Assembly: GCA_029933115.1 (NCBI GenBank) | Contig: JAOZOT010000001.1 | Coordinates: forward strand, 1-40,117 | DNA: 40,117 nucleotides | Reading direction: 5' to 3' | Source of the DNA: Anaerolineae bacterium | GTDB lineage: Bacteria > Chloroflexota > Anaerolineae > E26-bin7 | Shown here: in pieces, positions 2,648 to 40,117 of the stretch | How the letters are laid out: each line of letters begins with the position of its first letter | How positions within the stretch are numbered: the stretch's first letter is position 1 | Notes under the pieces: generated by a model | What the model was told of the DNA's origin: nothing | The model's input: only the letters and a program-made list of their open reading frames with translations | Database searches by the model: none | Position numbers and translations under genes: made by a program

Positions 2648-4273
2648 TCACAGATTGATGGGGTATCGGCCGTACGTTCTCATCAACAAATTAACGTCTT
2701 CCAGACCCCAGAGGTGAAGCTCTTCCTCTTCTGCCAGAGCAGGCACACGGCTGTCGTATCCGGCCAGGCAGATCAGAATCTTCTGTTCGACCGGACAGGT
2801 AACCAGGGAGCGCAACTTTTCCAGAAAACGCTTTGCCATGCCTGCGTCCACGGGCCTATCCTTCACCTCAGCGATCCAGACCCGGCCTTCACGACGGGCG
2901 ACGATGTCGTATTGCTTACCATCAATCACCTCAGCGGCGACACTGTCAAAGTGGGGGAGACGCAGCCCACGCAGCGAGGTTCGGCCATCAAAGGCGGCGA
3001 ACAGTTCCCTGATCCTGGCTTCGTTGCCCTTGCCAAGTTCCGTTTTGAAGGCGGCGATCATTCGCTCTACCTGGCTTTTGAAAAAATCATACCGCTCGTG
3101 CAGGCCCAGAATGGTCAGGTCCTCTTCCAGCGAGTAGACCTCCCGGATCCAGAGTTCCAGCAGGGGGTCCAGGAAGAAATATCGGGCCTTAGCACGATAC
3201 AGGAAACCCATATCCACCAGCCGCCGCAGGGGGGTGCTGACATTCTCCTTTTTCAGCCGCAGCGCCCTGGCGATCTCGGAGACGGAATGTTTTCCCAGGG
3301 CGATGGCCTTCAGCAGGTTGAGGTAGGTCTTGTAGCCCCGCGCCTGGAAGGAAGCCTCGATGAGATAGGCCAGGTAAGTGTAGATCGGCCCGTTGCTGGC
3401 AAAGGTCGTGGAGAGAAGCGCTTCGGTGATGACCGACTCGCTGGCGCGCCTGAGGGCCGGGGCGCGCCTGAGGATCTCATCGGTGAGGACATCGAGGTAG
3501 TAGGGATAGCCCCCGGTGGTCTGAGCCAGGAAGGCCAGTTGGGTCTCGTTGAGCAGCAGTTTGCCGGCCAGTTTCTCGATGATGAAGCCCCGAGCTACAG
3601 GGAAGGGGAAGGGCTGCACCAGTTCGATCTTGAAATGGCCAAAGAGGGGGTTCTTCCGATTGCGGAACATGTCTTCGATAGCGCTGATGGAGGAGCCGGC
3701 GACGATGAGGCCGAAACGCCGCTGATGAAGGAGATGCTGGCGCAGCCGGTGCTCGAAGGCGGGATAGCCGAAGGAGCGCACGTTCTGGAATTCGTCCAGG
3801 GCCAGCAGGTAGTAGATGTCCCGTTCCTGGCCCAGTCTTTCGGCCAGTTCAAACAGCAGGTCGAAAGTGACCTCGGCCTCTTTGGTGACCAGGGAGGGGA
3901 GGTCGAGCCATTTGCTCCCCAGGCGGGGAAAGAGGGGCAGGAGAGCCTGGGCCAGGGAGCGGAGTTTTTCCTCCCGGTTCAATCCCAGGAGCGCTGTCTG
4001 GTCGAGAGCCTGGAAGTGGAGAGCTGTGCGGGTGAGGAGACTCAGCAGAGCGGCCAGCGCAAAGTCCCGGAAAGAGCCCGGCTCGACATAGGTGTAGCAG
4101 AACAGAACATGCTCGTGTGAGCGCAGCATTTCATCGAGGCGGAAGAGGATAAGGGTTTTCCCGATCTTGCGTACCCCGATGAGGGCCAGGTTCTCGATCT
4201 TGCCCTGGGGCAACCCCTTGGCCAGAGCCAGGAGCCTGTTCAGTTCATCCTCGCGGTTGTAGAAAAAGGACAT
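2648..4273 (-). CDS. Archaeal-type P-loop ATPase (Arch_ATPase family) with wHTH and C-terminal DUF234-like domain
   Basis: This is a 541-aa ORF. N-terminus is 'FYNREDELNRL', Walker A is 'GVRKIGKT' and Walker B is 'YLLALDEFQ'. A wHTH-like stretch reads 'HSVSEIARALRLKKENVSTPLRRLVDMGFL'. The C-terminal 'QYDIVARREGRVWIAEVKDR' resembles a D..E-x-K nuclease-type core. GGAG lies 8-9 nt upstream of the ATG. Confidence 0.85.
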   Translation of the reverse strand: MSFFYNREDELNRLLALAKGLPQGKIENLALIGVRKIGKTLILFRLDEMLRSHEHVLFCYTYVEPGSFRDFALAALLSLLTRTALHFQALDQTALLGLNREEKLRSLAQALLPLFPRLGSKWLDLPSLVTKEAEVTFDLLFELAERLGQERDIYYLLALDEFQNVRSFGYPAFEHRLRQHLLHQRRFGLIVAGSSISAIEDMFRNRKNPLFGHFKIELVQPFPFPVARGFIIEKLAGKLLLNETQLAFLAQTTGGYPYYLDVLTDEILRRAPALRRASESVITEALLSTTFASNGPIYTYLAYLIEASFQARGYKTYLNLLKAIALGKHSVSEIARALRLKKENVSTPLRRLVDMGFLYRAKARYFFLDPLLELWIREVYSLEEDLTILGLHERYDFFKSQVERMIAAFKTELGKGNEARIRELFAAFDGRTSLRGLRLPHFDSVAAEVIDGKQYDIVARREGRVWIAEVKDRPVDAGMAKRFLEKLRSLVTCPVEQKILICLAGYDSRVPALAEEEELHLWGLEDVNLLMRTYGRYPINL

Positions 4274-26003: not shown

Positions 26004-27086
26004 ATGAGCAACTCTGTCCTGGTGACTGGTAGCAATGGTTTGATTGGTTCAGAAGCAGTGCAATGGTTTGATCGGCTGGGTTGGCAGGTCTACGGTATTG
26101 ATAATAATATGCGTATGCGATTTTTCGGACCTGAGGCAGATACCCGCTGGAACTTAGCTTGGCTGCAAGAGCATACGAATCGTTTTGAACACTTTGATAT
26201 TGATATTCGTGATCGAAAAACAATTCTGCAGTTTTTTCAAGATCACTCGCTAGATTTGATCATTCACTGCGCTGCACAGCCAAGCCATGATCTGGCTGCT
26301 CGAATACCTTTTGAAGATTTTGACACTAATGCGGTAGGAACGCTTAATCTTCTGGAGGCAACTAGGCGATATTGTCCTGATGCCGTGTTCATCTTCATGA
26401 GCACAAACAAAGTATATGGAGATGCACCTAATGAAATCCCACTGGTGGAATTGGAAACACGGTATGACTACGCTAACCCTCAAGACTACAATGGCATAGA
26501 TGAAACTTGCCGCATCGATCGCTGCTTGCACAGTCTCTTTGGGGCCTCAAAGGTTGCGGCCGACATAATGGCTCAAGAATATGGTCGGTATTTCGGTATG
26601 CCTGTCGGGATTTTTCGAGGTGGCTGTCTGACAGGCTCACACCACAGTGGGGTACAATTACATGGCTTTCTCTCCTACCTGGTAAAGGTCGCTGTTAGCG
26701 GCGGATCGTATACAATCTTTGGCTATAAAGGCAAACAAGTACGTGACAATATCCATAGTTGGGATGTTGTAAGTGCTTTCTATGAGTTTTACAAGAACCC
26801 GCGTTGTGGTGAAGTGTATAACATTGGCGGTGGTCGCAATAACAGCATTTCTGTGCTGGAAGCCATTGACAAGATAAGCCGCCTGACCGGTAAGGAAATC
26901 CAATGGACGTACCAGAACCGGCCGCGCGTCGGCGATCACATTTGCTACATCTCCGATCTATCAAAACTGCAAACCCATTACCCTAACTGGAGGATCACGC
27001 GCAAGTTAGATGACATCTTGCAGGATATGGTGGCGTTTGAACTAGCGCGAGTTCAGAAGAGAAGTACCCAATGCGAATTTGGCTAA
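26004..27086 (+). CDS. NAD-dependent epimerase/dehydratase (extended SDR, CDP-paratose-2-epimerase-like)
   Basis: '[15 protein letters not shown]' (GxxGxxG), '[10 protein letters not shown]', and '[10 protein letters not shown]' where YxxxK is expected. ATG 26004 follows 'gaggggga'. Confidence 0.85.
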
Positions 27087-28492
27087 TCACTGTGGCTGAT
27101 CCCATACCCTCAGACTACATGCGCCCTATGCGCGTGATGCAGGTAGCCGACCAAGCCATTGCTCGTGGGCACGAGGTGACAATATGGACGACAAGCTTCT
27201 CACATCACCTTAAACGCCAACGAGTTCACCAAGATACAGAATATCAGGTTCAAACAAATTACCGAGTTGTGGTGCTCAAGTCATGGGGCTACAGAAAGAA
27301 CATTTCGTTGCAACGCTATCTGGCTCATTGGCACTTTGCCAAACGGCTTTCCCATGCTTTTGAGAATGCAAAAACGTACCCCGACATTGTGATCGCAACA
27401 TTGCCTCCTCTTGATACAGTATTGGCTGCAGTGACTTTTTGCCAGAAACAAGGCATTCCAGTGGTGGTTGACGTGATTGATCCTTGGCCTGATGGGATTC
27501 TATCACTAGCGCCTAAAGCACTACGCCCACTGGCCAAATTGCTCTTAGTACCACTTTATAGACAAGCCAAGCGCATATTCTCCAGCGTGTCAGCTATAAC
27601 CGGCATATCTCAGACCTATGTTGAGTGGGGACTACAACTCAGCGGCAGAAAAAATATCCCGACATGGGTATTCTGGCCCGCTGCTGATGTGAAGTTTTAT
27701 AACTCAGAAGATGATCAAGCATGCAGGGATAGGTTGGGAATACCACTCAAAAAAAATATCAGGCAGGGATCGAGGTCACCGGACGGCGCTGGAGGCGTTG
27801 AGAGGGGCAGGAGGCAGGGCTCTCAGTGGGATTCAGCGTTCTCAATGGCTCGGGAGGCAAGGTCGCCTACAGTTTTAAATGATACTCATGAGTTGGATGT
27901 GGTTCGTTTTGTGTATGCTGGAGCTTTGGGGCGATCATACGATGTGGAAACCGTAGTTAAAGCAGCCCGCCTGTTGAACAGTCAAGGGGAAAAACGAGCT
28001 CATTTCGAAATTGCTGGCACTGGTCCGAAAGCTGAGCTGATTCACAGCATGGCATCCGAATTACCCAATGTCTCGCTTTACGGGTGGTTAGATGCCAAGG
28101 CCTTGCTAGCGCTGCTAAAGCGCAGCCATGTCGGTTTGGCGCCTTACACGAAGGATTCCACTCAAACGGTCACCTATAAGCTATTTGAATATCTGGCAGC
28201 GGGATTGCCAATTTTGTGCTCATTGCCTGGTGAGATGACAGACTTTATCGTTAAGCACAGGGTAGGCAGGTTCTTTGAACCGGGAAACGCAGTGGCATTG
28301 GCGGATCTGGTGAGCGAGATCCTTGAAGATGTAAGTTGGCTGAAAGATGCAAGTCGCTTGGCCAGACAAGTGGCTTGTAAATACGGAGAGAAGTGCGTTG
28401 TGTATACTAAAATGGTGCAGGTATGGGAGACAATAGCGGAAGATAAAGTATGTTTGAAAGGGCATATCGCCACCAAGTCGAGCGCACTCTAG
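27071..28492 (+). CDS. Glycosyltransferase, GT4 (WbuB/WcaI-like) with an interdomain insertion
   Basis: '[13 protein letters not shown]' and '[30 protein letters not shown]'. A GC-rich in-frame stretch lies at 27761-27868. Confidence 0.8.
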
Positions 28493-28500
28493 TGACTATT

Positions 28501-29607
28501 ATGCAACGGGCGTCGGGCTGGGTCAGCCTGTACAAACAAACGGATGACGCCCGGCTGTGGCAGGCCGCGCAGGAGAACCGCGTCGCCTCCATCGTCGCCC
28601 ATGCCCTGATGGATACCCTCGGCCCTGAACACACCCCGGCCCACTGGCGTCGGGCTCACGCAGAGACTTATGACCGCATCTCTGCCTACCTGGCCGAACT
28701 GGACCGCGTCGCTGCCCGGCTGACAGAAGAAGGCATCTCTCTCGTCGCCCTCAAAAACGGCGGCATCGCCCGTGGCCTCTATCCCTGCCCTGGCTGCTGC
28801 CCCATGGGGGACCTGGACGTGCTGGTGGAAAAACGCCACTTTCGTCGTGCCCACCGAATTCTGCTGGCCGGAGGCTACCACTTTGAGTTCCGCAGTCCAC
28901 TGGAGGAGGCCGAGCTGGAAGCTGCCGAAAAAAGCGGTGGGGCCGAATATTGGAAAATCCTGCCCAATGGCGTGAGACTGTGGCTTGAACTGCAATGGCG
29001 GCCGGTGGCCGGACGCTGGATCCGCCCCGATCAGGAACCATCCGCCAAAGACCTGATAGCTCGCTCTGCCCCTATCGCCGGTACGGATGTGCGCCTCCTC
29101 GCTCCTGAGGACAACCTGTTGCAGGTCGCCCTCCACACGGCCAAACATTCCTACGTGCGCGCCCCTGGTTTTCGCCTACACCTGGACGTGGAGCGCATCG
29201 TTCGTCACCAGACTATCAACTGGGGTTTGTTTTTGAGTCGGGTGCTGGCTTTGCAGGTCAAGACGCCGGTCTACTTTTCCCTGGTCATCCCCCGGGCTCT
29301 CTTTGGCACGCCGGTGCCCGACGATGTGCTGGACGCCTTGCGTCCGCCGGCGTGGAAGGAGCGTGTGTTCACCCGCTGGATTCAGCGGGTGGGCCTTTTT
29401 AACCCCGACGAGCGCAAATTCGGCAAGGCGGGTTACATCCTCTTCACTGCTCTGCTCTACGACGACCTGCGCGGCCTGTGGCGGGGCGTCTTCCCCGACA
29501 AAGCCTGGATGCAAGAGCGGTACGGGTTCCGAAGTAGCCTGCTGCTGCCCATCTATCACGTTCGCCGGCTGGCAGACCTGACCTGGCGACGAACGCTTAG
29601 CTTATGA
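28501..29607 (+). CDS. Uncharacterised nucleotidyltransferase-family protein (NTP_transf_5-like)
   Basis: 'CPMGDLDVLVEKRHFRRAHRILLAGGY' and 'LLQVALHTAKH'. The start is ATG 28501 or GTG 28492. Confidence 0.6.
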   Translation: MQRASGWVSLYKQTDDARLWQAAQENRVASIVAHALMDTLGPEHTPAHWRRAHAETYDRISAYLAELDRVAARLTEEGISLVALKNGGIARGLYPCPGCCPMGDLDVLVEKRHFRRAHRILLAGGYHFEFRSPLEEAELEAAEKSGGAEYWKILPNGVRLWLELQWRPVAGRWIRPDQEPSAKDLIARSAPIAGTDVRLLAPEDNLLQVALHTAKHSYVRAPGFRLHLDVERIVRHQTINWGLFLSRVLALQVKTPVYFSLVIPRALFGTPVPDDVLDALRPPAWKERVFTRWIQRVGLFNPDERKFGKAGYILFTALLYDDLRGLWRGVFPDKAWMQERYGFRSSLLLPIYHVRRLADLTWRRTLSL

Positions 29608-29623: not shown

Positions 29624-30583
29624 ATGAGCTATGGGCTTAAAATACGAGCCTATCGCTTGGGTGATGAAATTCAAATTCTACGATTGTTCCGCCAAAGCTA
29701 TGGACGAGATTTGGATAGGAAGGTTTGGTTTTGGCGTTTTCAAGACAATCCTGCTGGTCAAGGCATCATCTACTTGGGTTGGGACAAAGACACTTTGGCA
29801 GCTCATTATGGAGTCTCAGCGGTTGTCATGCGGATCAGTGGCTGGGATTGGTTGACGGGCTTATCGGGAACTACTATGACGCATCCAGATTATCGTGGAC
29901 AGGGTCTTTTCCCTAAGCTGGCTAGGAAAACGTATGATCAAATGAGACAAGCTGGTATGGCAATGGTATGGGGTTTCCCTAACACCCAATCGCATCGAGG
30001 ATTTGTCCGGGACTTGGAATGGGTGGATATTTACGAGATTCCAACGCTTCGTTTGGCCTTGCCGGGTCATCGTCTATTGCCTGTCCCTCCTCCTACTAAT
30101 ATTTTGGAACTACAATGGTTTGACGGGCGATTTGACCAGTTATGGGAGCAAGTGAGGGATGACTATCGCATCATAGCAAAACGCGATCGTGACTACCTAC
30201 AATGGCGCTATGTCAAAAATCCAGTGACGGAGTACCATATCTTGGCCTATGTGGATGGTGACGATGTGATGGGATATGCCGTGTACAAACGATACCGTGA
30301 AGAACTCCAAATAGTGGATATCCTGACCAGACCGGACATAGAAATTGGCCTTACATTAATCTCTCGTCTAGTGCAAATTGGTCTTGAACAATCGCTTTCG
30401 TCCGTAGGTCTTTGGCTAAACGTGTCACATCCTCTGCACAGAGCGTTAGAGAGATTAGGGTTTTATAATGATAGGCCTGTTATTTACTTTGGAGGGCTGT
30501 CATTGCAGTCCCATTTGCAGGAAACCGAGATATATGATTTTCGCAATTGGTACTTGACGATGGGAGACTCTGATGTGTTTTAA
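29624..30583 (+). CDS. GNAT-like acyltransferase (two-domain), paralog of 11579
   Basis: 'TMTHPDYRGQGLFPKLARKTY'. The C-terminal tail is 'NWYLTMGDSDVF'. RBS 'gagggaaag' is upstream. Confidence 0.7.
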   Translation: MSYGLKIRAYRLGDEIQILRLFRQSYGRDLDRKVWFWRFQDNPAGQGIIYLGWDKDTLAAHYGVSAVVMRISGWDWLTGLSGTTMTHPDYRGQGLFPKLARKTYDQMRQAGMAMVWGFPNTQSHRGFVRDLEWVDIYEIPTLRLALPGHRLLPVPPPTNILELQWFDGRFDQLWEQVRDDYRIIAKRDRDYLQWRYVKNPVTEYHILAYVDGDDVMGYAVYKRYREELQIVDILTRPDIEIGLTLISRLVQIGLEQSLSSVGLWLNVSHPLHRALERLGFYNDRPVIYFGGLSLQSHLQETEIYDFRNWYLTMGDSDVF

Positions 30584-31241
30584 AATCAGCGAGAGCAAGC
30601 TCCTAGCCACATTGAAGACTGTGAAGGATATCGGGCGCCAATTTCAGCTGGCACTTAAGCGCTTGCTAGATATAGTTCTCTGCATCATTGTGCTTGTTTT
30701 AGGCTTTCCTTTTTTCGTGTTAATTGCTTTTCTGGTTAAATTTTCGTCTCCTGGTCCTATTTTTTTTATGCAGCAGCGAGTTGGTCGCGGAGGTAAGATT
30801 TTTGTAATGATTAAGTTTCGGACAATGGTTGCTGACCATCAGCTAAGTGTACCTCATGTATGGAATCTAACTGAAGAAGCAAGGATAACCTCAGTGGGTA
30901 GGTTCTTACGCGATTTTGGTCTTGATGAGCTGCCACAGGTGTTTAATATCCTCAAGGGAGACATGAGTATTGTTGGTCCACGGCCTCCTTTGCCTATGCA
31001 GGTAGATGATTACACGGAGCGTCAGGCACTTGCGTTTAACATGCGACCAGGAGTGCTTTCCTGGGCTGCGGTTAATGGTCGTCGCTCTATATCTATGGAG
31101 CAACGCCGAGACCTTCATGCTTGGTATGTACAGAACTGGTCTTTATGGCTTGATCTTAAAATACTGTTCCGCTCTTTTCTGGTTGTCCTTAAGAGAGAAA
31201 ATGCAGGTGAACGGCTGGAGACCATCATTACAAAGAATTGA
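30573..31241 (+). CDS. Small phosphoglycosyl transferase (bacterial sugar transferase family, PglC/WbaP-C-terminal-like)
   Basis: It has a re-entrant helix 'LKRLLDIVLCIIVLVLGFPFFVLIAFLV'. Other motifs are 'PGPIFFMQQRVGRGGKIFVMIKFRTM' and 'GLDELPQVFNILKGDMSIVGPRP'. Confidence 0.9.
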   Translation: MCFKISESKLLATLKTVKDIGRQFQLALKRLLDIVLCIIVLVLGFPFFVLIAFLVKFSSPGPIFFMQQRVGRGGKIFVMIKFRTMVADHQLSVPHVWNLTEEARITSVGRFLRDFGLDELPQVFNILKGDMSIVGPRPPLPMQVDDYTERQALAFNMRPGVLSWAAVNGRRSISMEQRRDLHAWYVQNWSLWLDLKILFRSFLVVLKRENAGERLETIITKN

Positions 31242-31254
31242 TTTGAGCAAGGGT

Positions 31255-31926
31255 ATGGCCACGCGGGTATTAGTGATTGCTGCTCATCCTGACGACGAGG
31301 TGCTTGGTTGTGGGGGGGCAATTGCTCGTCATGTTGAAAATGGAAGTCAGGTCTATGTACTTATAGCAACACGTGGTGCTCCTGACGTGTTTCCTTCTGC
31401 CCAGGTTGAGACAGTCTGGCAAGAAGCACATGCAGCTCATGAGATGTTGGGTATAACGGAGACATACACTTTGGATTTCTTAGCTCCCCGCCTAGATGTC
31501 ATACCTACGCACGAGCTGGTTGATAGCATTCATGAGCATCTTATACAACTTCGACCGGAAATCGTGTATCTACCTCATCGTGGGGATATTCACAATGATC
31601 ATCGCTGCGTCTATCATGCTACCCTAGTTGCTGCTCGTCCAATTGACAACTGTGGAATCAATCGTTTGCTCTGTTACGAAACGCCTTCGGAGACCGAATG
31701 GGCGCCGCCATCTGGAGATAATGCTTTTGTCCCCACTGTATTTGTTGACATTAGCCGACATTTGGAAATCAAGCTACGAGCAGTTGCCTGTTATCGCTCG
31801 CAAATTAAGGAGCCGCCCCATCCACGTTCATTGAGAACTGTGGAGATTCAGGCCCGTTTACGTGGGAGCACCGTAGGGTTGTCTGCTGCAGAGGCATTTA
31901 TGCTAGTGCGCGAAATAGTCAAATAA
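31255..31926 (+). CDS. PIG-L / LmbE-family deacetylase
   Basis: 'VLVIAAHPDDEVLGCGG' and 'HNDH'. The start is ATG 31255. The track ORF from 31006 overlaps the sugar transferase. Confidence 0.85.
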   Translation: MATRVLVIAAHPDDEVLGCGGAIARHVENGSQVYVLIATRGAPDVFPSAQVETVWQEAHAAHEMLGITETYTLDFLAPRLDVIPTHELVDSIHEHLIQLRPEIVYLPHRGDIHNDHRCVYHATLVAARPIDNCGINRLLCYETPSETEWAPPSGDNAFVPTVFVDISRHLEIKLRAVACYRSQIKEPPHPRSLRTVEIQARLRGSTVGLSAAEAFMLVREIVK

Positions 31927-32196
<270 letters not shown>

Positions 32197-33119
32197 ACTG
32201 CTGCGGGCCTTTCGTCAGGCCTACCAGGCCCTGGGGCTGAGCGGCCGCATCGTGGCCGTGGACATAGACCCGCTGGCCCCCGCTTTGCAGGTCGCCGATC
32301 GCTACTACCTCGTCCCTCGCCTCACCTCACCCCATTACATCCCCACCCTGGTCGGCATCTGTCAGCGCGAACGCATCAACCTGGTTTTCCCTTTGATTGA
32401 CCCTGACATCCCCGTGCTGGCGCGCCATCGAGAGGATATTGAAGCGACGGGCGCCCGCCTGGCGGTGGTCTCGCCGGAGGCGGCCGCCACCGCCGCCGAC
32501 AAGTGGCTGACTGTTCAGTTCTTTCAACGCCTGGACTTGCCCACACCGCGTTCCTGGCTGCCGGGACAACTGGACCCGGCCCAGGTCAGGTATCCGCTTT
32601 TCATCAAACCGCGTTTCGGCAGCGCCGCCAGGAGCACGTTCAAAGTGCGCAACGCCCGAGAGTTGGCCTTCTTTTCGGATTACGTGCCGGATCCCATCGT
32701 GCAGGAATACCTGCCCGGCCCCGAAATCACCAATGACGTCATCTGTGACCTGGAAGGCGAGGTGCTGGCCGTGGTCTCCCGCCGGCGCATCGAAGTGCGT
32801 TGGGGCGAAGTGGCCAAAGGAGTGACGATTCACAACCCGTTCATAACCCGGGCCTGCGTGAAAATTGCCAGGGCGCTGCCGGCCATCGGCCCCATCACCG
32901 TGCAGTGCATGATGAAAGGGGTAACGCCGCATTTCACCGAGATCAATGCCCGGCTGGGTGGCGGGGTGCCACTGGGCATCGCCGCGGGCGTAGAATTTCC
33001 CCGCTGGCTGCTGGCACAAGCGGCCGGACGGCCCATGTATATCCCACCGCCGGACACCTACCTGGTTGGCCTGTACCTGACCCGCTACGATGATTCCTTC
33101 TTTCTGAGCGAAGCCGAAC

Positions 33120-33818
33120 GTGAGCAGGTGGCAAGCCATCGTCTTTGACCTGGACGATACCCTTTACCCGGAGCGAGATTACGTGCTCAGCGGCTTCCGG
33201 GCTGTGGCCGCCTGGGCCGAAGCACACCTGGACATCCCGGCTGCGCTGGGATTGGCCGAGCTACAAAGCCTCTTTGAGCAAGGCGTGCGTGGCGACACCT
33301 TTAACCGCTGGTTGGCGGCGCACGGCCTGGCCTCCGAGAGCCTGGTGCTGCGACTGGTCCAGGTCTATCGAGAGCACGAGCCGGCGCTGACCCCTTTTCC
33401 CGAGGTGCCGGGTTTGCTCGCCTCATTCCGTCGGCGCTATCGCCTGGGCATCGTCAGCGACGGCTACCTGGCCGTGCAGCAGCGCAAGCTGGCGGCCCTG
33501 AACCTGGCCCATCACTTTGAGGCCATCGTCTTTTCCGACGAGTGGGGGCGCAGAGCCTGGAAGCCCAGCGTCATACCGTTCCAGGCCGTCCTGCAGCGGC
33601 TGGCAGTGTCCGCCGCCGGTTCAGTCTACGTGGCGGACAATCCGGGCAAAGATTTCCTCGGTGCCCGGCAGGCCGGTATGTTCACCGTCTGGGTGCGACG
33701 GCCCGGCGGAGAATACGCCCGCTCGACTCCACCGACAGCACACCATGCCCCTCATTGGACTATCACCTCCCTGCTGGAATTGGAATCAACCATTGTGGGA
33801 CAGGAGACGCCTCGTTGA
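33120..33818 (+). CDS. HAD-superfamily hydrolase (subfamily IA-like)
   Basis: 'AIVFDLDDTLY' (DxDxT), 'GIVSDG' and 'VYVADNPGKDF'. The start is GTG, and no in-frame ATG lies before the DxD motif. Confidence 0.8.
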   Translation: MSRWQAIVFDLDDTLYPERDYVLSGFRAVAAWAEAHLDIPAALGLAELQSLFEQGVRGDTFNRWLAAHGLASESLVLRLVQVYREHEPALTPFPEVPGLLASFRRRYRLGIVSDGYLAVQQRKLAALNLAHHFEAIVFSDEWGRRAWKPSVIPFQAVLQRLAVSAAGSVYVADNPGKDFLGARQAGMFTVWVRRPGGEYARSTPPTAHHAPHWTITSLLELESTIVGQETPR

Positions 33819-33829
33819 CCCCCATCCCC

Positions 33830-34930
33830 ATGTCTGCGCCTGATCTGACCGAGGCCGAGATCGAAGCCGTCACTCAGGTCCTGGCTACTCCTCACCTCAG
33901 TATGGGCCCACGCCTGGACGAATTCGAGCGGCGGGTGGCCGGGTACATTGGTGTGTGCCACGCCGTGGCCGTCTCCAGTGGCACAGCCGGGCTGCACCTG
34001 TGTGTCATCGCCGCCGGGGTCAAGGAAGGGGACGAGGTCATCACCACGCCGTTCAGCTTTGTCTCGTCGGCCAATTGCGTCCTGTTTGAGCGGGCCAGGC
34101 CGGTGTTCGTGGACGTTGTGGCCGATACATTATGCCTTGATCCTGCTCGGATTGAAGAGGCCATTACGCCCCGGACCAAAGCTATCCTGGCGGTGGACGT
34201 CTTCGGCCAACCGGCGGATTACGACCCCATCCGCGAGATCGCCGAGCGGCACAACTTGGTGATCATCGAGGACGCCTGCGAGGCCATCGGGGCCGAGTAC
34301 AAAGGGCGTAAGGCAGGCACCCTGGGCAACGCCGCCGTTTTCGCCTTTTACCCCAACAAGCAGATGACTACCGGCGAGGGGGGCGTGATCGTCACCGACC
34401 GGGATGACTGGTCCGCTCTCTTCCGTTCGCTGCGCAACCAAGGGCGTGACGTTTTTGACGGCTGGCTTACCCACACCCGGCTGGGCTACAACTATCGCCT
34501 GGACGAGTTGAGCGCGGCGCTGGGTGTAGCACAGTTGGGCCGCATCGAGGAGTTGCTGGCCAAGCGCGAGCGGGTCGCAGATTGGTACAACGAGCGGCTG
34601 ATAAACATTGAAGGGGTGCGCATCCCGTACATCGCGCCAACGACCACGCGCATGAGCTGGTTCGTCTACGTCGTCCGTTTTCGGCCGCCTCTCAATCGGG
34701 ATTGGATATTGGCCGCCCTCAAGGCGCGGGGTATCCCTTCACGACCCTATTTCACACCGATCCACCTGCAACCGTTCTATGTCCAGAAGTTCGGCTATGA
34801 GCGAGGTGACTTTCCCCAGGCAGAAGCGGCGGGCGATTCGTGCCTGGCTCTGCCCTTCTCCGGCGTAATGACCGAGGAGCAGGTGGACCGTGTTTGCCGT
34901 GCTCTGAAGGAGATTGTTGCGGAAGGGTAG
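33830..34930 (+). CDS. DegT/DnrJ/EryC1/StrS-family sugar aminotransferase (PglE/PglC-Nm-like)
   Basis: 'AVSSGTAGLHLC', 'ITTPFSFVSSAN' and 'FAFYPNKQMTTGEGG' (PLP lysine). The start is ATG 33830 or TTG 33815. Confidence 0.9.
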   Translation: MSAPDLTEAEIEAVTQVLATPHLSMGPRLDEFERRVAGYIGVCHAVAVSSGTAGLHLCVIAAGVKEGDEVITTPFSFVSSANCVLFERARPVFVDVVADTLCLDPARIEEAITPRTKAILAVDVFGQPADYDPIREIAERHNLVIIEDACEAIGAEYKGRKAGTLGNAAVFAFYPNKQMTTGEGGVIVTDRDDWSALFRSLRNQGRDVFDGWLTHTRLGYNYRLDELSAALGVAQLGRIEELLAKRERVADWYNERLINIEGVRIPYIAPTTTRMSWFVYVVRFRPPLNRDWILAALKARGIPSRPYFTPIHLQPFYVQKFGYERGDFPQAEAAGDSCLALPFSGVMTEEQVDRVCRALKEIVAEG

Positions 34931-35089
34931 AGGGGTAAGGAAAATCTTTGAGAGACACATCGGCACTCCTTCCCGGATATTTCGGTCAAGCTCAGGAGCC
35001 GTTTGGCAGCCTCCTTGATTGCCGCAGGTCTCCTGGCCGAGGCCGGAGGGAGTTCGGTGAGGACACTTGCACCCATCGTGGAGAGAGAA

Positions 35090-37117
35090 GTGAGAGTGCG
35101 TAACCGGCATTTCCTGATCCTCGACGTTCTGATCCTGAGCCTGCTACCGGCTCTGGCCCTCAGCCTGCGCCTGGACGGTTGGAGTTGGTGGCCACGCTAT
35201 GCTTCAGGGCTGGCGCTTTTCACTGCCCTGAGCCTGGTAATCAAGTTGGCTGCCATCTACAGTTTTGACCTCTACACCCGCTACTGGCCCTGTGCCACCA
35301 TGGACGACCTGGTCCAGATTGTGATCGCTGTGGCCGTGAGTACTGTGGTGACGGCAGCCTTGTGCACCATGACCCATCCCACTCTGGCTATCTACGGCGC
35401 AGCCCTGCCTCGCTCGGTCCCCCTCATTGATGGGCTGCTGACTTTGATTGCCGTGGGTGGGCTGCGGTCCAGTGCCCGGATCCTGGCTTGTCGAAACCAC
35501 CGGCGGATCGAGCAGGCCCTCGGCCAACGAGCTCGCCCTGAGCAGGGCCGGAGAGTGCTGGTGATGGGAGCCGGTGAAGCCGGGCGCTTGATTGTGCGCG
35601 AGATGTTCACCAACCCCCAACTGAGACTGGAGCCCGTAGGCTTTGTGGACGACGACCCAAACAAGCTGGGAACGCGCATCCACGGCCTGCCGGTGCTAGG
35701 GACCCGAGAGGACATCCCTGCCCTGGTGAGAGAGCACGGAGTCCAGCAGGTGATCATCGCCATGCCCAGAGCCCCGGGCACAGTGGTCCGCCGGGTGCGG
35801 GCCATCTGCGAAGGAGCCGGTGTGACGGCGCGGACTATCCCCGGCCTCTACGAGATCCTGTCAGGCCGGGTGAAGGTGAGCCAGATCCGCGATGTGACCA
35901 TTGAGGACTTGTTGCGGCGCGAGCCGGTAGTGATTGACCAGGCAGAGGTAGACGCCTATCTGCGCGAGACCACGGTCCTGGTGACGGGAGCTGGGGGCTC
36001 CATTGGCTCAGAGTTGTGCCGACAGATCGCCGCTCACAGTCCGCAACGGCTGATTCTCCTGGGGCATGGCGAGCATAGCATCTTTACCATCCAGATGGAG
36101 TTGCGCCAGGCCTTCCCCGCCCTGACCCTACACAGTGTCATCGCCGACGTGCGCGACGAGGCACGCCTCAACCGGGTCATGGACACCTACCGCCCCACGG
36201 TGGTGTTTCACGCTGCTGCCCACAAGCACGTGCCTCTCATGGAAGCCAACGTGGCAGAAGCCATCACCAACAATGTGCTGGGCACCAAAAGGTTGATCCA
36301 GGCGGCCGAACGCTGTGAGGTGCGCCGTTTTGTGCTCATCTCCACCGACAAAGCCGTCAACCCGGTGAGTGTCATGGGAGCCTGCAAGCGCATCGGCGAG
36401 ATGCTGGTGCAAGAAGCGGCCCGACGGAATGGCAGCATCTTTGTAGCCGTGCGCTTTGGCAACGTGTTGGGCAGCCGAGGCAGCGTGGTAGACGTATTTC
36501 GGCGCCAGATCACCGCCGGGGGGCCGTTGACGGTGACCCACCCCGAGATGCGCCGTTATTTCATGACCATCCCCGAGGCAGTCCAGTTGGTGTTACAGGC
36601 AGCGGCGCTGGGCCAGGGCGGTGAGATCTTTGTGTTGGACATGGGAGAGCCGGTGCGCATCGTGGACCTGGCCCGTGATTTGATCGAACTATCGGGGCTG
36701 ATACCGGGGTGTGAGGTCGGGATCACCTTCTGCGGAGCCCGGCCCGGCGAGAAGATGTGCGAGGAGCTATTCAGCCAGGAGGAGAACTGCACCCCCACCA
36801 GACATTCCAAGATTCTCGTGGTCAGGCGCGCCCCGGCCATTGCCGGGGAAAAGCTGCAACAGGCTATACGCGAGCTAGAGTGGCTGGTAGAAAGGGCAGG
36901 GGAGGACATCCTCCGGGCCAAGCTCCAAGAGATCGTGCCGGAATATCGGCCGATGGAGACGGTGAGAGAGGGCGCTCTCCAGGCTGGGCTCTCGGAGACT
37001 GTGCTCAGGTATCGGCCGGCGGGTCCTCGCGCTCTGTCAACTCTCCAGGCACTGCCTCGGCACCTGTCCTCACCTCGTCTTCACGACCGGCTACCGTCAC
37101 TTGGTGCTGAACGGTGA
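35090..37117 (+). CDS. Membrane-anchored CapD/PglF/WbpM-type nucleotide-sugar 4,6-dehydratase
   Basis: The N-terminus has hydrophobic helices. 'VLVTGAGGSIGSELCRQI' and 'FVLISTDKAVNPVSVMGACKRIGE' follow. A GTG start (35090 or 35096) lies behind 'ggagagagaa'. Confidence 0.9.
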   Translation: MRVRNRHFLILDVLILSLLPALALSLRLDGWSWWPRYASGLALFTALSLVIKLAAIYSFDLYTRYWPCATMDDLVQIVIAVAVSTVVTAALCTMTHPTLAIYGAALPRSVPLIDGLLTLIAVGGLRSSARILACRNHRRIEQALGQRARPEQGRRVLVMGAGEAGRLIVREMFTNPQLRLEPVGFVDDDPNKLGTRIHGLPVLGTREDIPALVREHGVQQVIIAMPRAPGTVVRRVRAICEGAGVTARTIPGLYEILSGRVKVSQIRDVTIEDLLRREPVVIDQAEVDAYLRETTVLVTGAGGSIGSELCRQIAAHSPQRLILLGHGEHSIFTIQMELRQAFPALTLHSVIADVRDEARLNRVMDTYRPTVVFHAAAHKHVPLMEANVAEAITNNVLGTKRLIQAAERCEVRRFVLISTDKAVNPVSVMGACKRIGEMLVQEAARRNGSIFVAVRFGNVLGSRGSVVDVFRRQITAGGPLTVTHPEMRRYFMTIPEAVQLVLQAAALGQGGEIFVLDMGEPVRIVDLARDLIELSGLIPGCEVGITFCGARPGEKMCEELFSQEENCTPTRHSKILVVRRAPAIAGEKLQQAIRELEWLVERAGEDILRAKLQEIVPEYRPMETVREGALQAGLSETVLRYRPAGPRALSTLQALPRHLSSPRLHDRLPSLGAER

Positions 37118-37150: not shown

Positions 37151-38467
37151 TTGAAAAGATTAGCCACCCGGATCACCCGGGTAGAGTTGTGGCTTCTGCT
37201 GCTCATCACACCATTGCTACTCTTCCCGAATCCCCTCACCCCTCTGGGGCTGGTCTTGTCCCTGACGCCCTGGCTAGGCCGCTGGGAGGTGAGAGGTCAC
37301 CTCACGGCGCGCACGCCGGCCGACTGGCCCATCGTGGTGATGATGCTGATGAGCATCGTCGGCCTGTATCCTTCTGTCAACCTTTCCCTGAGTCTGGTCA
37401 CATTGTGCCAGCTTGTGGCCGGGGTGGGGCTCTTCTACGGGGTGGTCAACTGGACCTGGTCTACCTGCCCCGAGTTCCACCGAAGAAGCCAAAGGCTATG
37501 GCCGGTTGCGTTTCTGCTGGTAGCTTTGGGCCTGGCTCTGGCCCTGGTTGCCCCACTGGGTATCAACTGGAGTCATACAAAACTTTTCTCCAGCCCAATC
37601 TACGACCACGTACCGTCCTTGTTGCAGCGTTATGAGACCATCAATGCCAACGTGCTGGCCGGAGCCCTGGCTTTGCTTGTCCCTGTCAGTATGGCTTTGC
37701 TCTTGTTCGCTCCTTTCTCCTTTTTATCCAGAGGGCAGGCCTGGTTGGCCCGGGCCGGCCTGTTCGCGGCCACGCTGGCTATGCTGGCCGTCGTCTTCCT
37801 GACTCAATCGCGGGGGGTCTACCTGGCCCTGGCTCTCGGCTTGTTGATCATGGTCCTGCTGTGCCGTTCAGAACTCTTGTGGGGCACGCCTCTCTTGCTC
37901 GTGGGAGCCGGAGTAGCCATCCGTCGTTTTGGTCTGTATCCTCTTCTAGAGGCCATATTGGTAACAGATTCTCTCAGTGGGTTGGAGACAAGGCGGCAAA
38001 TCTGGTCTGCGGCCCTGGCTATGATCGGCTATTTCCCTCTGACCGGCATCGGCCTGGGGACTTTTAACCAGACCCTGTCCGGCATGTATCCGTTTTCCGT
38101 CCAATATAGCCCCCAAACGAGCGTAAACCACGCCCACAATCTATTCTTGCAAGTGGGTATAGACCTGGGCGTGCCTGGGCTGTGCGCTTTTGCGACTCTG
38201 GTGGTCCTCAGTCTGCGGGCTGCCTGGCAGGTGTGGCGCTCCCGCACGGTGACAGGCCGGAAAGATACCGGCGCCCTGGGCCTGGGCCTTTTTACCAGCC
38301 TCATCGTCATGGCGTTGCACGGGGCGGTAGATGCCGTCACTTGGGGCACAAAGCCCTCGGTCATCCCCTGGCTGGTGATGGGCTTGAGTATGGCCGCTTG
38401 TAACCTGACAAAAGTGGACGTTCTCGACGCGGAGATTTCAATTGGTCACACCAAGACAAAACCCTGA
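37151..38467 (+). CDS. Wzy_C-family membrane protein (O-antigen ligase / polymerase / O-oligosaccharyltransferase family), copy 2
   Basis: The protein is polytopic. 'SVNHAHNLFLQVGIDLGVPGLCAF' is the Wzy_C motif. It starts at TTG; the next in-frame ATG would remove the first helices. Confidence 0.7.
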   Translation: MKRLATRITRVELWLLLLITPLLLFPNPLTPLGLVLSLTPWLGRWEVRGHLTARTPADWPIVVMMLMSIVGLYPSVNLSLSLVTLCQLVAGVGLFYGVVNWTWSTCPEFHRRSQRLWPVAFLLVALGLALALVAPLGINWSHTKLFSSPIYDHVPSLLQRYETINANVLAGALALLVPVSMALLLFAPFSFLSRGQAWLARAGLFAATLAMLAVVFLTQSRGVYLALALGLLIMVLLCRSELLWGTPLLLVGAGVAIRRFGLYPLLEAILVTDSLSGLETRRQIWSAALAMIGYFPLTGIGLGTFNQTLSGMYPFSVQYSPQTSVNHAHNLFLQVGIDLGVPGLCAFATLVVLSLRAAWQVWRSRTVTGRKDTGALGLGLFTSLIVMALHGAVDAVTWGTKPSVIPWLVMGLSMAACNLTKVDVLDAEISIGHTKTKP

Positions 38468-40117
38468 AGGTCAGACGGGCTCATCACGGCCGCCCGTCGA
38501 AGGGTTCTGCCCTCACCTGGGCCTGGAAGAAGATAAGGCTTCACACTTTTCGTATTCCGAGAGCGCCCATCGCTGCTTCGCTGCCGGGTCGCCTGAAACC
38601 GTCGAATTGGAGCACCAGGAGAAATTCTGCCTGGGAGGGGAGTATCGGTTCTGTACACGTTTCGTCGAGACTCCTGCCCCGGTGAGACGGCCCGATAAGG
38701 CGAAGGCGATGCCCGCTGAAGAGGCCGGTGATTACCGATACGGCCGTCGAGGGCTCTCCAGGGGATTCGTTGTTCCGCTGCGGGTCACCCTGTGGGCCCT
38801 GACCGGGGTGCTGACCGTTTTGGCCCTCTTGTATCTGGGTTTCTCCCTCGTCAATGCGCCTTCGGCCCCTGGCGACGCCGAGGGCTTCGGTCACACCGAA
38901 GGGCCTGCCCTGAGCGCGGCCGCAGAAGCTTCACCGCCAGAGCCGGGAGCCATTGCCGGGGCACTCACCCCTACGCCGTTGCAGTTCGACCGCCCCACGC
39001 CGATCCCTACCCCACCGCCAGGCGGTAACATATTTATCCTGACGCCGGCCGCCAGGGCGGTGGGTTGGGTAGCCAGCCCCGGGCCAGGCGAAGAGGAAAA
39101 CAACCACTTTGGTGACTCTTACCTGCACGCCGGGGTATACGGAGGGTTGGTGTATCATGGAGCCATACAATTCGATCTATCGTCGGTCATCACCCCCGGC
39201 ACCCCCATCTACTTTGCCGCTCTCCAGGTGACCGGCCTGAGCCGAGAGCGCCTGGGCACCGGCGGCCGTTGGGAACTGCAATTGCTCGGCCTGGAAATGG
39301 ACCCCGACTGGTCTTCCCACACTTTCCAGGACGTCCACAACGCCAGAATTGATGAGACTATTCCCCCGGCTTTGGAGAACGGCGACCTGGACAAAAACAA
39401 GACCAACGTTTTCACTTTCAGCGCCGGGCAGTTGATTGTCCTGGAAAAACGGGTGTACGACAGTGGCCTGGTCTCCTTCCGCCTGGATGGCCCTTCTTCG
39501 GGTGAGAATAACCTTTTCACCTGGGATAGCGGCTATGGCCCCGGCAGCCTGGGCCATAAGCCACTGCTGATCATCGGCGTAGGCCCCCCACCATTGACGC
39601 CGGTACCGACGCGCACTCCTTTCCTGGTGGTAATCACCAGCACGCCCACGCCGTCGAATGCGTTGGTGGCCGCAGCCCAGGCGGCCACTGCGGTCTTCCG
39701 GGCTACCGCGACCGGCACGCCGACCCCCTTGCCTACCAATTGGGTCACGCCCATCGTGGTCACCAGCACGCCCACGCCGGAGAACGAAGCCACGGCCACC
39801 TACATCGCAGCCCGGGCTACCGTTGAAGCCTTCACCACCGGTACGGCCACCCCCACGCCGCCGCATCAGTTCACGGCTACGCCCACGCCCACCTGGGTCG
39901 TGGTGACCAGCACGCCTACGCCGGAGAATGTACTCACGGCCGTGGCCATGCTAGCCCCGCTCAACGCCCGGACCACGGGCAACATACAGCTCGCTGCTAC
40001 GCCCCTCCCATCCAACTGGGTCACGCCCATCGTGGTCACCAGCACGCCCACGCCGGAGAACAAAGCCACGGCCACCTACATCGCAGCCCGGGCTACCGTC
40101 GAGGCCTTCACCACCGG
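38442..40117 (+). CDS. Partial CDS (3' end beyond the window): Cys/His-rich N-terminus, one TM helix, unknown ectodomain, Thr/Pro-rich tandem repeats
   Basis: I checked codon by codon and this frame has no stop from 38409 to 40117. It is not in the ORF track because it has no stop. The proposed TTG 38442 lies 7 nt after GGAG; ATG 38709 is the alternative start. The N-terminus reads 'CPHLGLEEDKASHFSYSESAHRCF..HQEKFCLGGEYRFCTRF'. The TM helix is 'LRVTLWALTGVLTVLALLYLGFSLV'. Confidence 0.65.
   Translation, partial: MVTPRQNPEGQTGSSRPPVEGFCPHLGLEEDKASHFSYSESAHRCFAAGSPETVELEHQEKFCLGGEYRFCTRFVETPAPVRRPDKAKAMPAEEAGDYRYGRRGLSRGFVVPLRVTLWALTGVLTVLALLYLGFSLVNAPSAPGDAEGFGHTEGPALSAAAEASPPEPGAIAGALTPTPLQFDRPTPIPTPPPGGNIFILTPAARAVGWVASPGPGEEENNHFGDSYLHAGVYGGLVYHGAIQFDLSSVITPGTPIYFAALQVTGLSRERLGTGGRWELQLLGLEMDPDWSSHTFQDVHNARIDETIPPALENGDLDKNKTNVFTFSAGQLIVLEKRVYDSGLVSFRLDGPSSGENNLFTWDSGYGPGSLGHKPLLIIGVGPPPLTPVPTRTPFLVVITSTPTPSNALVAAAQAATAVFRATATGTPTPLPTNWVTPIVVTSTPTPENEATATYIAARATVEAFTTGTATPTPPHQFTATPTPTWVVVTSTPTPENVLTAVAMLAPLNARTTGNIQLAATPLPSNWVTPIVVTSTPTPENKATATYIAARATVEAFTT
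39615..40117 (+). repeat. In-frame tandem coding repeats (42-48 codon units, at least 4 copies)
   Basis: The core 'accagcacgcc(c/t)acgccg' (TSTPTP) recurs at 39636, 39762, 39906 and 40038. The 106-nt stretches 39736-39841 and 40012-40117 differ at 4 positions. Confidence 0.85.

Follow-up and report, generated by a model that had tools for sequence, protein, structure and literature searches.

How is the 4-amino group of a bacillosamine-like sugar acylated when the usual acetyltransferase is missing from the locus? This question is raised by a polysaccharide locus of an Anaerolineae bacterium, located in a 40,117-nucleotide stretch of contig JAOZOT010000001.1 (assembly GCA_029933115.1), which was analyzed as a whole and is called here the window. 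Its part between positions 30573 and 37117 contains a gene for an ATP-grasp ligase and an overlapping gene for a HAD phosphatase, preceded by the remains of a small phosphoglycosyl transferase (PGT) and followed by genes for a sugar 4-aminotransferase and a nucleotide-sugar dehydratase. Judged from gene content and gene order, the cassette most likely makes a bacillosamine-like sugar with an unusual 4-N-acyl group, by means of a ligase and a phosphatase that would replace the acetyltransferase. The whole five-gene reading, in which the ATP-grasp enzyme would acylate a UDP-4-amino-trideoxyhexose and the HAD enzyme would remove the phosphate of the donor acid, is held with slightly more confidence than doubt.

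The region from 27 to 38.5 kb consists of closely packed genes, all on the + strand, and the gene calls within it rest on comparisons with Pfam, NCBIfam, and the PDB. The features of the cassette itself are as follows.

31927-32197, + strand: relic of a PglC-type PGT without a start codon (Pfam Bac_transf, positions 128-179 only, E 4e-17)
32124-32129, + strand: Shine-Dalgarno sequence GGAGGA, 5 nt 5′ of the TTG start of the ATP-grasp gene (read off the sequence)
32135-33148, + strand: PylC-like ATP-grasp ligase (Pfam PylC-like_N and ATP-grasp_3)
33120-33818, + strand: HAD-IA phosphatase (Pfam HAD_2, E 1e-19), with a 29-nt overlap with the ATP-grasp gene
33830-34930, + strand: DegT-family sugar 4-aminotransferase (Pfam, E 6e-120)
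35003-37117, + strand: membrane-anchored PglF/CapD-type UDP-GlcNAc 4,6-dehydratase (Pfam Polysacc_synt_2, E 4e-117, and CoA_binding_3)

The first-pass annotation of this DNA had named a dehydratase, a DegT aminotransferase, a PGT, a transferase remnant overlapping the ATP-grasp gene, and a HAD gene after it; all of them were recovered with Pfam, in that arrangement. The dehydratase, which may really begin 3′ of the TTG at 35003, is of the PglF type, with 288 bits (E 1e-84) to Campylobacter jejuni PglF (5bju). The annotated absence of a PglD-type left-handed beta-helix (LbH) acetyltransferase also stood: tblastn of the 40-kb window with four PglD-like queries gave a best E of 0.05, and the Hexapep family had no match in any open reading frame scanned.

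The window proteins were mapped onto 83 non-redundant related loci. These loci span more than ten phyla, i.e., Chloroflexota, Acidobacteriota, Planctomycetota, Bacteroidota, Nitrospirota, Myxococcota, Bathyarchaeia, and others. The HAD gene lies directly downstream of the ATP-grasp gene in 72 of the 76 loci with enough sequence, starting 0.9-1.3 kb past the ATP-grasp start, and the overlap of the two genes is conserved with a mode of 29 nt. Such an arrangement is far beyond chance, and the HAD gene is translationally coupled to the ATP-grasp gene. A small PGT is encoded at most 1.5 kb upstream of the ATP-grasp gene in 42/69 loci (59/69 within 8 kb), a DegT gene directly follows the HAD gene in 50/67 loci (58/67 within 8 kb), and a PglF-like dehydratase occurs within 8-9 kb in 19/58 loci. 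The core thus described has five genes, encoding a PglC-like PGT, the ATP-grasp ligase, the HAD phosphatase, a 4-aminotransferase, and a PglF-like dehydratase. A PglD-like gene of any kind is present in only 9 of the 83 loci.

The character of the partner enzymes can be read from a single related locus, L004. Its PGT matches Campylobacter concisus PglC (8g1n) over the full length (228 bits, E 8e-67), GELLxD loop and C-terminal ATMEEF extension included. A GxLLP loop, an aromatic box, and such an extension characterize PglC-type PGTs, and loop and extension have been tied to diNAcBac-type substrates (PMC10186338). The L004 aminotransferase is PglE-like (332 bits to 1o61), and a PglE-like enzyme fills the slot after the HAD gene in most related loci. 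Because the PGT is PglC-like, the L004 aminotransferase is PglE-like, and PglD-like genes are so rare, the earlier idea that an ATP-grasp and a HAD stand in place of the acetyltransferase fits the family. The PglB2-like logic claimed along with it, after the Neisseria enzyme in which a transferase is fused to an ATP-grasp domain, is borne out in part: the pair would take the slot of PglD, with 74 of the 83 loci lacking a PglD-like gene, and PGT-ATP-grasp fusions exist in the family, but the genes of the window itself are unfused.

The pair also extends to more distant genomes. With 33-37% identity, it is found beside an aminotransferase and a PGT gene on a Priestia filamentosa plasmid and beside a PglF-like gene on Palleronia and Ensifer replicons, together with a DegT gene in Palleronia; in Palleronia and Ensifer, a formyltransferase gene is located directly upstream of the ATP-grasp-HAD genes. 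The HAD gene is wanting in a few loci (L039, L046, and L053). In L046 and L053, from Bacteroidota metagenome-assembled genomes (MAGs), the ATP-grasp is joined to a PglD-like LbH domain (P0121 type), two PIG-L genes lie upstream, and no HAD gene is present; the two loci constitute a HAD-less sub-variant of the system. No donor-synthesizing enzyme was found to co-occur in the related loci. A gene of the NTP_transf_5 family (PF14907), annotated as an uncharacterized nucleotidyltransferase, stands just upstream of the PglC-like PGT gene in at least ten related loci (carriers are L009, L010, L014-L016, L018, L022, L032, L034, L041, and L061), 59-69% identical to a copy in the window, and is a conserved partner of the cassette without an obvious role. 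In the literature searched, neither a published description of the ATP-grasp and HAD pair nor a characterized sugar acylation by such a pair was found.

The ATP-grasp protein is, by family membership, a predicted carboxylate-amine ligase. In a Foldseek search with its AlphaFold2 model (predicted local distance difference test score 95.5), the first match was 2pn1, with a template modeling score of 0.84, and the next were PylC, L-amino-acid ligases, and PurT. The catalytic residues E269, N271, and R273 are conserved, and the Mg ligands and the catalytic Arg are kept in the family. The closest NCBIfam model, NF009405 (PRK12767.1-4, "carbamoyl phosphate synthase-like protein"), scores 321.6 bits, below its cutoff of 390, and its name is only a legacy label. 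Carbamoyl-phosphate and D-Ala ligases, which the first-pass annotation had singled out as families that would speak against its proposal, were compared and rejected. A true carbamoyl-phosphate synthase is set aside by the lack of a CPSase_L_D2 match, and a D-Ala-D-Ala ligase by E values of about 0.1 to Ddl and VanA and by a score of 21 bits to the Ddl NCBIfam model, whose cutoff is 243.

The family of this ligase is large. More than 1500 homologues share sequence words with it, of which the 119 listed besides the window protein are 68-81% identical, and an exhaustive phmmer search returned 840 clusters at 50% identity (E≤1e-30). A scan of one genome per species yielded 263 relatives in more than ten phyla, including archaea. 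The best 80 of these 263 all come from MAGs, mostly of Chloroflexota/Anaerolineae, and the rest of the 80 belong to Acidobacteriota, Planctomycetota, Bacteroidota, Nitrospira, Myxococcota, Verrucomicrobiota, a bacterium of the candidate phyla radiation, and Bathyarchaeia. No Neisseria protein was among the matches listed for the window ATP-grasp, for a profile of the PGT-ATP-grasp fusions, or for the divergent fusion P0229.

The HAD protein carries the motifs FDLDDTL (DxDxT), WKP, and DNPGKD, conserved at 95% or more in 66 homologues. With motif I of the form DxDx(T/V), the Lys of motif III, and the acidic pair of motif IV in place, it is by family membership a phosphatase-type member of the HAD superfamily. 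Its best NCBIfam matches are generic (CTE7 and YjjG nucleotidase), and the comparison with PHROGs likewise gave a generic HAD match only. The suggestion of the first-pass annotation that the HAD may process a phosphorylated acyl donor agrees with the intact and conserved DxDxT motif, and the step as such we infer.

Gene fusions link the two enzymes to each other and to the priming transferase. In the family of the window ATP-grasp, PGT-ATP-grasp fusions are represented by P0122 (59% identical to the window ATP-grasp), P0229, and about 70 clusters, mainly from Clostridiales. An ATP-grasp-HAD fusion (P0233) and triple PGT-ATP-grasp-HAD fusions (P0238, P0435-P0439, P0442, and P0444) are also present, the latter in the same order as the window genes. 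The contexts of the fusions are similar: a DegT gene, the PGT-ATP-grasp fusion, and a HAD gene in L087; PglF, DegT, the triple fusion, and a PglD-like gene in L174; and DegT, the PGT-ATP-grasp fusion, and a HAD-LicD fusion in L175. Because of these fusions and their contexts, the ligase and the phosphatase would catalyze neighboring steps of a short series of reactions, while the sugar is still bound to its nucleotide and beside the priming transferase. Such fusions are strong, although non-biochemical, evidence for joint action of the two predicted enzymes. In L089 (1783-4559), an ATP-grasp-HAD fusion is directly followed by a NeuB-like nonulosonic-acid synthase, which hints that the same chemistry decorates precursors of pseudaminic or legionaminic acid.

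Two Clostridiales loci with PGT-ATP-grasp fusions show a further association. In L175 (8665-10140) a single protein combines the HAD with a LicD phosphotransferase domain, in L087 (9668-11150) such a domain comes after the HAD, and cytidylyltransferase genes lie nearby. In these loci, the hydroxyl that the HAD would expose may receive a further phospho-substituent. In 17 of the 83 related loci, of an Anaerolineales group (e.g., L075:9334-10017), a class I S-adenosylmethionine-dependent methyltransferase gene (Methyltransf_11) is inserted between the PGT and ATP-grasp genes, and a similar gene is present in L002. This position would fit, as weak evidence, a modification of the newly exposed hydroxyl.

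The proposed pathway follows from these assignments. By family membership, the PglF-type dehydratase would convert UDP-GlcNAc to UDP-2-acetamido-2,6-dideoxy-4-hexulose, and the DegT enzyme would convert this to UDP-4-amino-4,6-dideoxy-HexNAc, whose amine is the probable target of acylation. The ATP-grasp ligase would then activate a carboxylic acid as an acyl phosphate and amidate the 4-amino group in the stead of PglD, a step proposed because of synteny, the fusions, and the precedents of Bacillus cereus Pyl and Neisseria PglB2. An ATP-grasp reaction frees inorganic phosphate, and its product keeps no phosphate. The presence of a dedicated phosphatase therefore points to an acid that is itself phosphorylated, or to a free acid made from a phosphorylated metabolite; as no donor-making enzyme co-occurs, the donor is probably a common metabolite. 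The acid may be a hydroxy-acid phosphorylated in central metabolism, and the best guess is 3- or 2-phosphoglycerate, which would give a 4-N-glyceroyl group like that of Neisseria. The HAD would strip the phosphate, acting on the amide product or, ahead of ligation, on the free acid. Finally, the PGT would move the sugar phosphate onto undecaprenyl phosphate.

Three precedents bear on this acylation and on the guess of glyceroyl. PglB2 yields glyceramido-acetamido-trideoxyhexose (GATDH), and the pglB2 allele was inserted along with an additional "ORF8" (PMC11130364). Neisseria oralis makes GATDH as well, and its pgl locus has a HAD hydrolase gene adjoining a formyltransferase gene (PMC6959607). 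In B. cereus, Pyl (Bc5272) of the Pdeg/Pat/Pyl pathway to UDP-Yelosamine ligates 2-oxoglutarate to UDP-4-amino-FucNAc (Hwang et al. 2014, as summarized in PMC11626204).

The genome of the window departs from the ancestral cassette at its 5′ end, where the following genes are located.

28450-29607, + strand: NTP_transf_5 (PF14907) gene (Pfam, E 1e-45), with a cassette-like guanine-cytosine (GC) content of 0.62
29624-30583, + strand: two-domain GNAT acetyltransferase (Pfam Acetyltransf_9 and Acetyltransf_1), GC 0.46
30573-31241, + strand: intact small monotopic PGT, called here PGT′ (Bac_transf 1-179/179, E 6e-62), GC 0.44
31246-31926, + strand: complete PIG-L/LmbE-family de-N-acetylase (Pfam PIG-L, E 1e-24)

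Two of these, the PIG-L gene inside the interval of the first-pass annotation and the GNAT gene abutting the PGT, were missing from its otherwise correct gene list. DNA homology to the related loci covers the NTP_transf_5 gene, ends at about 29531-29582, and resumes abruptly at 31925-31942, just past the PIG-L stop codon. In L009, L010, L016, L022, L032, and L061, the NTP_transf_5 gene is directly followed by the PglC-like PGT and then the ATP-grasp gene, and it marks the left edge of the ancestral synteny. The 2.3 kb between 29608 and 31926, with the GNAT, PGT′, and PIG-L genes, have 46% GC against 62-63% in both flanks. The relic after them aligns to residues 143-208 of the 210-residue L004 PGT (about 66 C-terminal residues), is 42-92% (mostly 55-92%) identical to the C-termini of PGTs 5′ of the ATP-grasp in other loci, and bears the PglC-type marks W..KF and ATMEEF, the only PglC-type PGT features in the window. 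Its normal stop is gone, its 3′ part overlaps the ATP-grasp gene (start at 32135), and it holds the ribosome-binding site of that gene. The low-GC insert has replaced the 5′ two-thirds of the PglC-like gene, i.e., its first ~140 codons. Because L005 and L006, independent assemblies of different runs, both show the junction, it is not an assembly chimera.

With the PglC-like gene replaced, priming would now be carried out by a different PGT. PGT′ has WbaP (8t53) as its best PDB match, with 137 bits against 128 bits for PglC, lacks the GxLLP loop and the C-terminal extension, and is 36-48% identical to the PGTs of related loci; it is not PglC-type and came in with the insert. The "established enzyme set" of the first-pass annotation is therefore upheld for the PglF-type dehydratase only, since the PglC-type transferase is a dead relic, the intact PGT is of another type, and the aminotransferase is not of the PglE type. 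The set in this genome is better described as a mosaic, and the truncated gene as a clear case, found in nature, of a module exchanged where a glycan pathway is primed.

The closest NCBIfam model to the PIG-L protein is BshB1, with a score under its cutoff, and its PDB relatives are TT1542, BshB, and diacetylchitobiose deacetylase. Relatives of it recur in metagenomic PglF-DegT-PIG-L-PGT modules (L121, L125, L129, L141, L160, and L161), inside which no acyltransferase gene was detected. Such a module suggests a route to a 2-amino (de-N-acetylated) 4-amino-trideoxyhexose, and because of this recurrence a deacetylase acting on 2-acetamido-4-amino sugars would be a recurring theme. The GNAT has no NCBIfam match and no PDB relative, and is absent from all 83 related loci. 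With low confidence, the PIG-L enzyme would remove the 2-N-acetyl group of the window's sugar, with a PGT suited to the altered sugar having arrived along with it, and the GNAT may re-acylate the freed amine. The two enzymes brought in with PGT′ may thereby change the substituent on the 2-amino group or even contribute an acetylation of their own.

The aminotransferase of the window belongs to another lineage than that of L004. It scores 295 bits to perosamine synthase (3bn1) and 140 bits to PglE (1o61), and in roughly one related locus out of three it is this perosamine-synthase-like lineage that follows the HAD gene. The two DegT lineages that share the slot (window 33830-34930 vs. L004:11685-12845) are 33-38% identical. 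They may give different C4 stereochemistry.

Several points weigh against the five-gene reading as set out above. The ATP-grasp/HAD family is known here from sequence, synteny, and predicted structure alone, the nearest structure, 2pn1, is a structural-genomics entry without annotation, and the identity of the acyl group is a guess by analogy. The window aminotransferase is closest to GDP-perosamine synthase, and because the cognate PglC-like PGT is dead, the acylated sugar is not certain to remain the priming sugar. C1-capped HAD-IA enzymes usually act on small substrates; since the window HAD is of this kind, dephosphorylation before ligation is favored over action on the UDP-sugar amide. 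Members of the ATP-grasp family are also fused or adjacent to PglD-like (P0160, P0204, P0121, and L174) or FemAB-like (P0133) proteins, and a formyltransferase is next to the pair in Palleronia and Ensifer. With second N-acyl or aminoacyl transferases so placed, an amino-acid donor such as O-phosphoserine would fit better than glycerate, and for this reason a phosphorylated amino-acid donor is a serious alternative, although on balance unlikely. In it, the ATP-grasp would ligate O-phospho-L-serine, O-phospho-threonine, or O-phospho-homoserine, the HAD would dephosphorylate the product, and a separate acyltransferase would cap the alpha-amine (the GNAT in the window; a PglD-like, formyltransferase, or FemAB-like enzyme elsewhere). 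Besides these fusions, the PglD-like gene after the L174 triple fusion, the formyltransferase directly 5′ of the ATP-grasp-HAD genes or, in N. oralis, adjoining the HAD, the GNAT beside the PGT in the window, and the fact that PylC and L-amino-acid ligases are the nearest characterized folds speak for such a donor. The core cassette in most loci, however, has no second acyltransferase, the window GNAT came with the insert and lies outside the conserved cassette, and the sole documented product of a PGT-ATP-grasp fusion, that of Neisseria PglB2, is a glyceramido sugar (PMC11130364).

The HAD may also have nothing to do with the acyl donor. An ordinary, non-phosphorylated acid would then be ligated, as 2-oxoglutarate is by Pyl, and the HAD would have a role apart from the acyl group, e.g., on a sugar phosphate, on a nucleotide, or in housekeeping. 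The generic NCBIfam matches of the HAD and its absence from L039, L046, and L053 are consistent with this, and Pyl, in the summary of Hwang et al. 2014 given in PMC11626204, works without a phosphatase. The 95% adjacency, the conserved overlap, and the ATP-grasp-HAD and triple fusions bind both enzymes to one step sequence, and a dedicated phosphatase makes sense only with a phosphate-bearing substrate, as the ATP-grasp product keeps none, which leaves the separate role distinctly unlikely. A biochemically proven ligase and HAD precedent comes from capsule synthesis in C. jejuni, where Cj1438C uses a phosphorylated partner for the ligation and the phosphate is taken off afterwards by the HAD Cj1435 (PMC11800397). 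By that model, the ATP-grasp would amidate the carboxylate of a polysaccharide uronic acid with ethanolamine phosphate or serinol phosphate. It is very improbable here, given that the cassette partners are DegT, PglF, and PGT, not UDP-glucose dehydrogenase or enzymes of amino-alcohol phosphates, and that the fusion to a priming PGT indicates the nucleotide-sugar stage. Cj1438C (a TupA-like ATP-grasp) and Cj1435 were also rejected as homologues of the window pair, with no significant match by BLASTP or by a family hidden Markov model, and the precedent is an analogy only, because the proteins are unrelated in sequence. The truncation of the PglC-like gene with the loss of its normal stop raises the thought that the cassette of this genome is a decaying leftover that no longer feeds a glycan, or that the adjacent GNAT merely acetylates the 4-amine to a diNAcBac-like sugar, as GNATs such as PseH acetylate UDP-4-amino sugars (PMC5378307). 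Set against this are full-length ATP-grasp, HAD, DegT, and PglF genes with intact catalytic motifs and 54-76% identity to their homologues, the strong Shine-Dalgarno sequence that the relic retains for the ATP-grasp gene, the same junction in two samples, and the intact PGT supplied by the same insert; decay or plain acetylation appears improbable.

The acylation of a UDP-4-amino-trideoxyhexose with an acid that is phosphorylated or comes from a phosphorylated precursor is thus preferred for this cassette. A wider claim, that the ATP-grasp/HAD pair is a general two-enzyme route in bacteria and some archaea, placing hydroxy-acyl groups from phosphorylated central metabolites on sugar amines with N-glyceroyl as the prototype, is tentative and would be doubtful on present grounds. 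If true, it would supply the missing enzymology of Neisseria GATDH. It could also explain N-glyceroyl nonulosonic acids, e.g., Pse5Am7Gra of Tannerella, a link drawn because the ATP-grasp-HAD fusions adjoin NeuB-like synthases. Which N-acyl group a bacillosamine-type or nonulosonic sugar carries affects antigenicity and immune evasion, an example being the switching between pglB and pglB2 in meningococci. To our knowledge, the enzymatic installation of non-acetyl groups such as glyceroyl has never been demonstrated. The genetic basis of the N-glyceroyl substitution in Tannerella was described as a major open challenge in 2017 (PMC5378307). The pair would gain interest if it proves to be a general route to N-glyceroyl or N-hydroxyacyl amino sugars. 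Knowledge of its reaction would also improve the annotation of thousands of genes labeled "carbamoyl-phosphate synthase large subunit".

The cassette is embedded in a longer polysaccharide locus, and the two remaining genes of the packed region flank it on either side.

27071-28492, + strand: GT4 glycosyltransferase (Pfam)
37151-38467, + strand: O-antigen ligase/polymerase-like membrane protein with a Wzy_C domain (Pfam Wzy_C, E 5e-20)

Genes similar to that of the Wzy_C protein come after the cassette in L002, L029, and L061. Upstream, positions 136-27086 form a single large + strand polysaccharide locus encoding a sulfotransferase, many GT2 and GT4 glycosyltransferases, a polysaccharide deacetylase, a second GNAT, an FkbM methyltransferase, an Asn-synthase-type amidotransferase, a carbamoyltransferase, a thymidylate-kinase-like protein, and an APH-like kinase. 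The locus is a mosaic, since its GC content varies from 45% to 64%. The sole sizeable gene on the minus strand (2648-4273) encodes an AAA_16 ATPase with a MarR/ArsR-type helix-turn-helix, possibly a regulator embedded in the locus. The terminal part, 38500-40117, is of high GC content and has only open reading frames rich in Pro, Arg, and Gly, on both strands.

Among known systems, the mycothiol and bacillithiol pathways employ a PIG-L deacetylase (MshB/BshB), an ATP-dependent ligase (MshC), and a GNAT (MshD), and they resemble the window in that its PIG-L, ligase, two-domain GNAT, and HAD genes lie side by side. The resemblance is in reaction types only: all scores are far below the family cutoffs, the setting is a polysaccharide locus, and the PIG-L and GNAT genes arrived by a separate insertion. 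The Cj1438C/Cj1435 system likewise couples an ATP-dependent amide ligase and a phosphorylated partner with a dedicated HAD, but the carboxyl group there belongs to glucuronate in the polymer and the partner is an amine phosphate, instead of a sugar amine at the UDP-sugar stage. The Campylobacter PglF/E/D/C pathway to diNAcBac is closer, with a PglF-type dehydratase in the window and PglE-like and PglC-like enzymes in the related loci. It differs in that the window lacks PglD, an aminotransferase of the PglE type, and a live PglC, PGT′ being slightly closer to WbaP, and in that an ATP-grasp and a HAD lie between the PGT and the aminotransferase in the cassette.

B. cereus Pyl, as far as summarized in PMC11626204, is likewise an ATP-grasp carboxylate-amine ligase; the UDP-4-amino-6-deoxy-HexNAc that it acylates is supplied by a dehydratase and an aminotransferase, and it is encoded beside a small PGT. 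The window ligase, by fold, motifs, and synteny, is in the same type of context, beside a 4-aminotransferase and a small PGT. The donor of Pyl is 2-oxoglutarate and the summary describes no HAD partner, whereas a phosphatase is almost invariably coupled to the ligase here. Neisseria PglB2, the mechanism of which is itself only proposed, offers the nearest parallel in logic, as an ATP-grasp takes the place of the acetyltransferase domain alongside a dehydratase, an aminotransferase, and a PGT. The domain order PGT-ATP-grasp is found in the window family with up to 59% identity to the window ligase, PglB2 being compared by description. In the window, by contrast, PGT and ATP-grasp are encoded apart, no more than a relic is left of the PglC-type PGT, PIG-L and GNAT genes are added, and the aminotransferase is of another lineage; split pglB2 alleles have been reported as functional (PMC4569582). 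In N. oralis, the HAD located by a formyltransferase mirrors the formyltransferase-ATP-grasp-HAD order of Palleronia and Ensifer.

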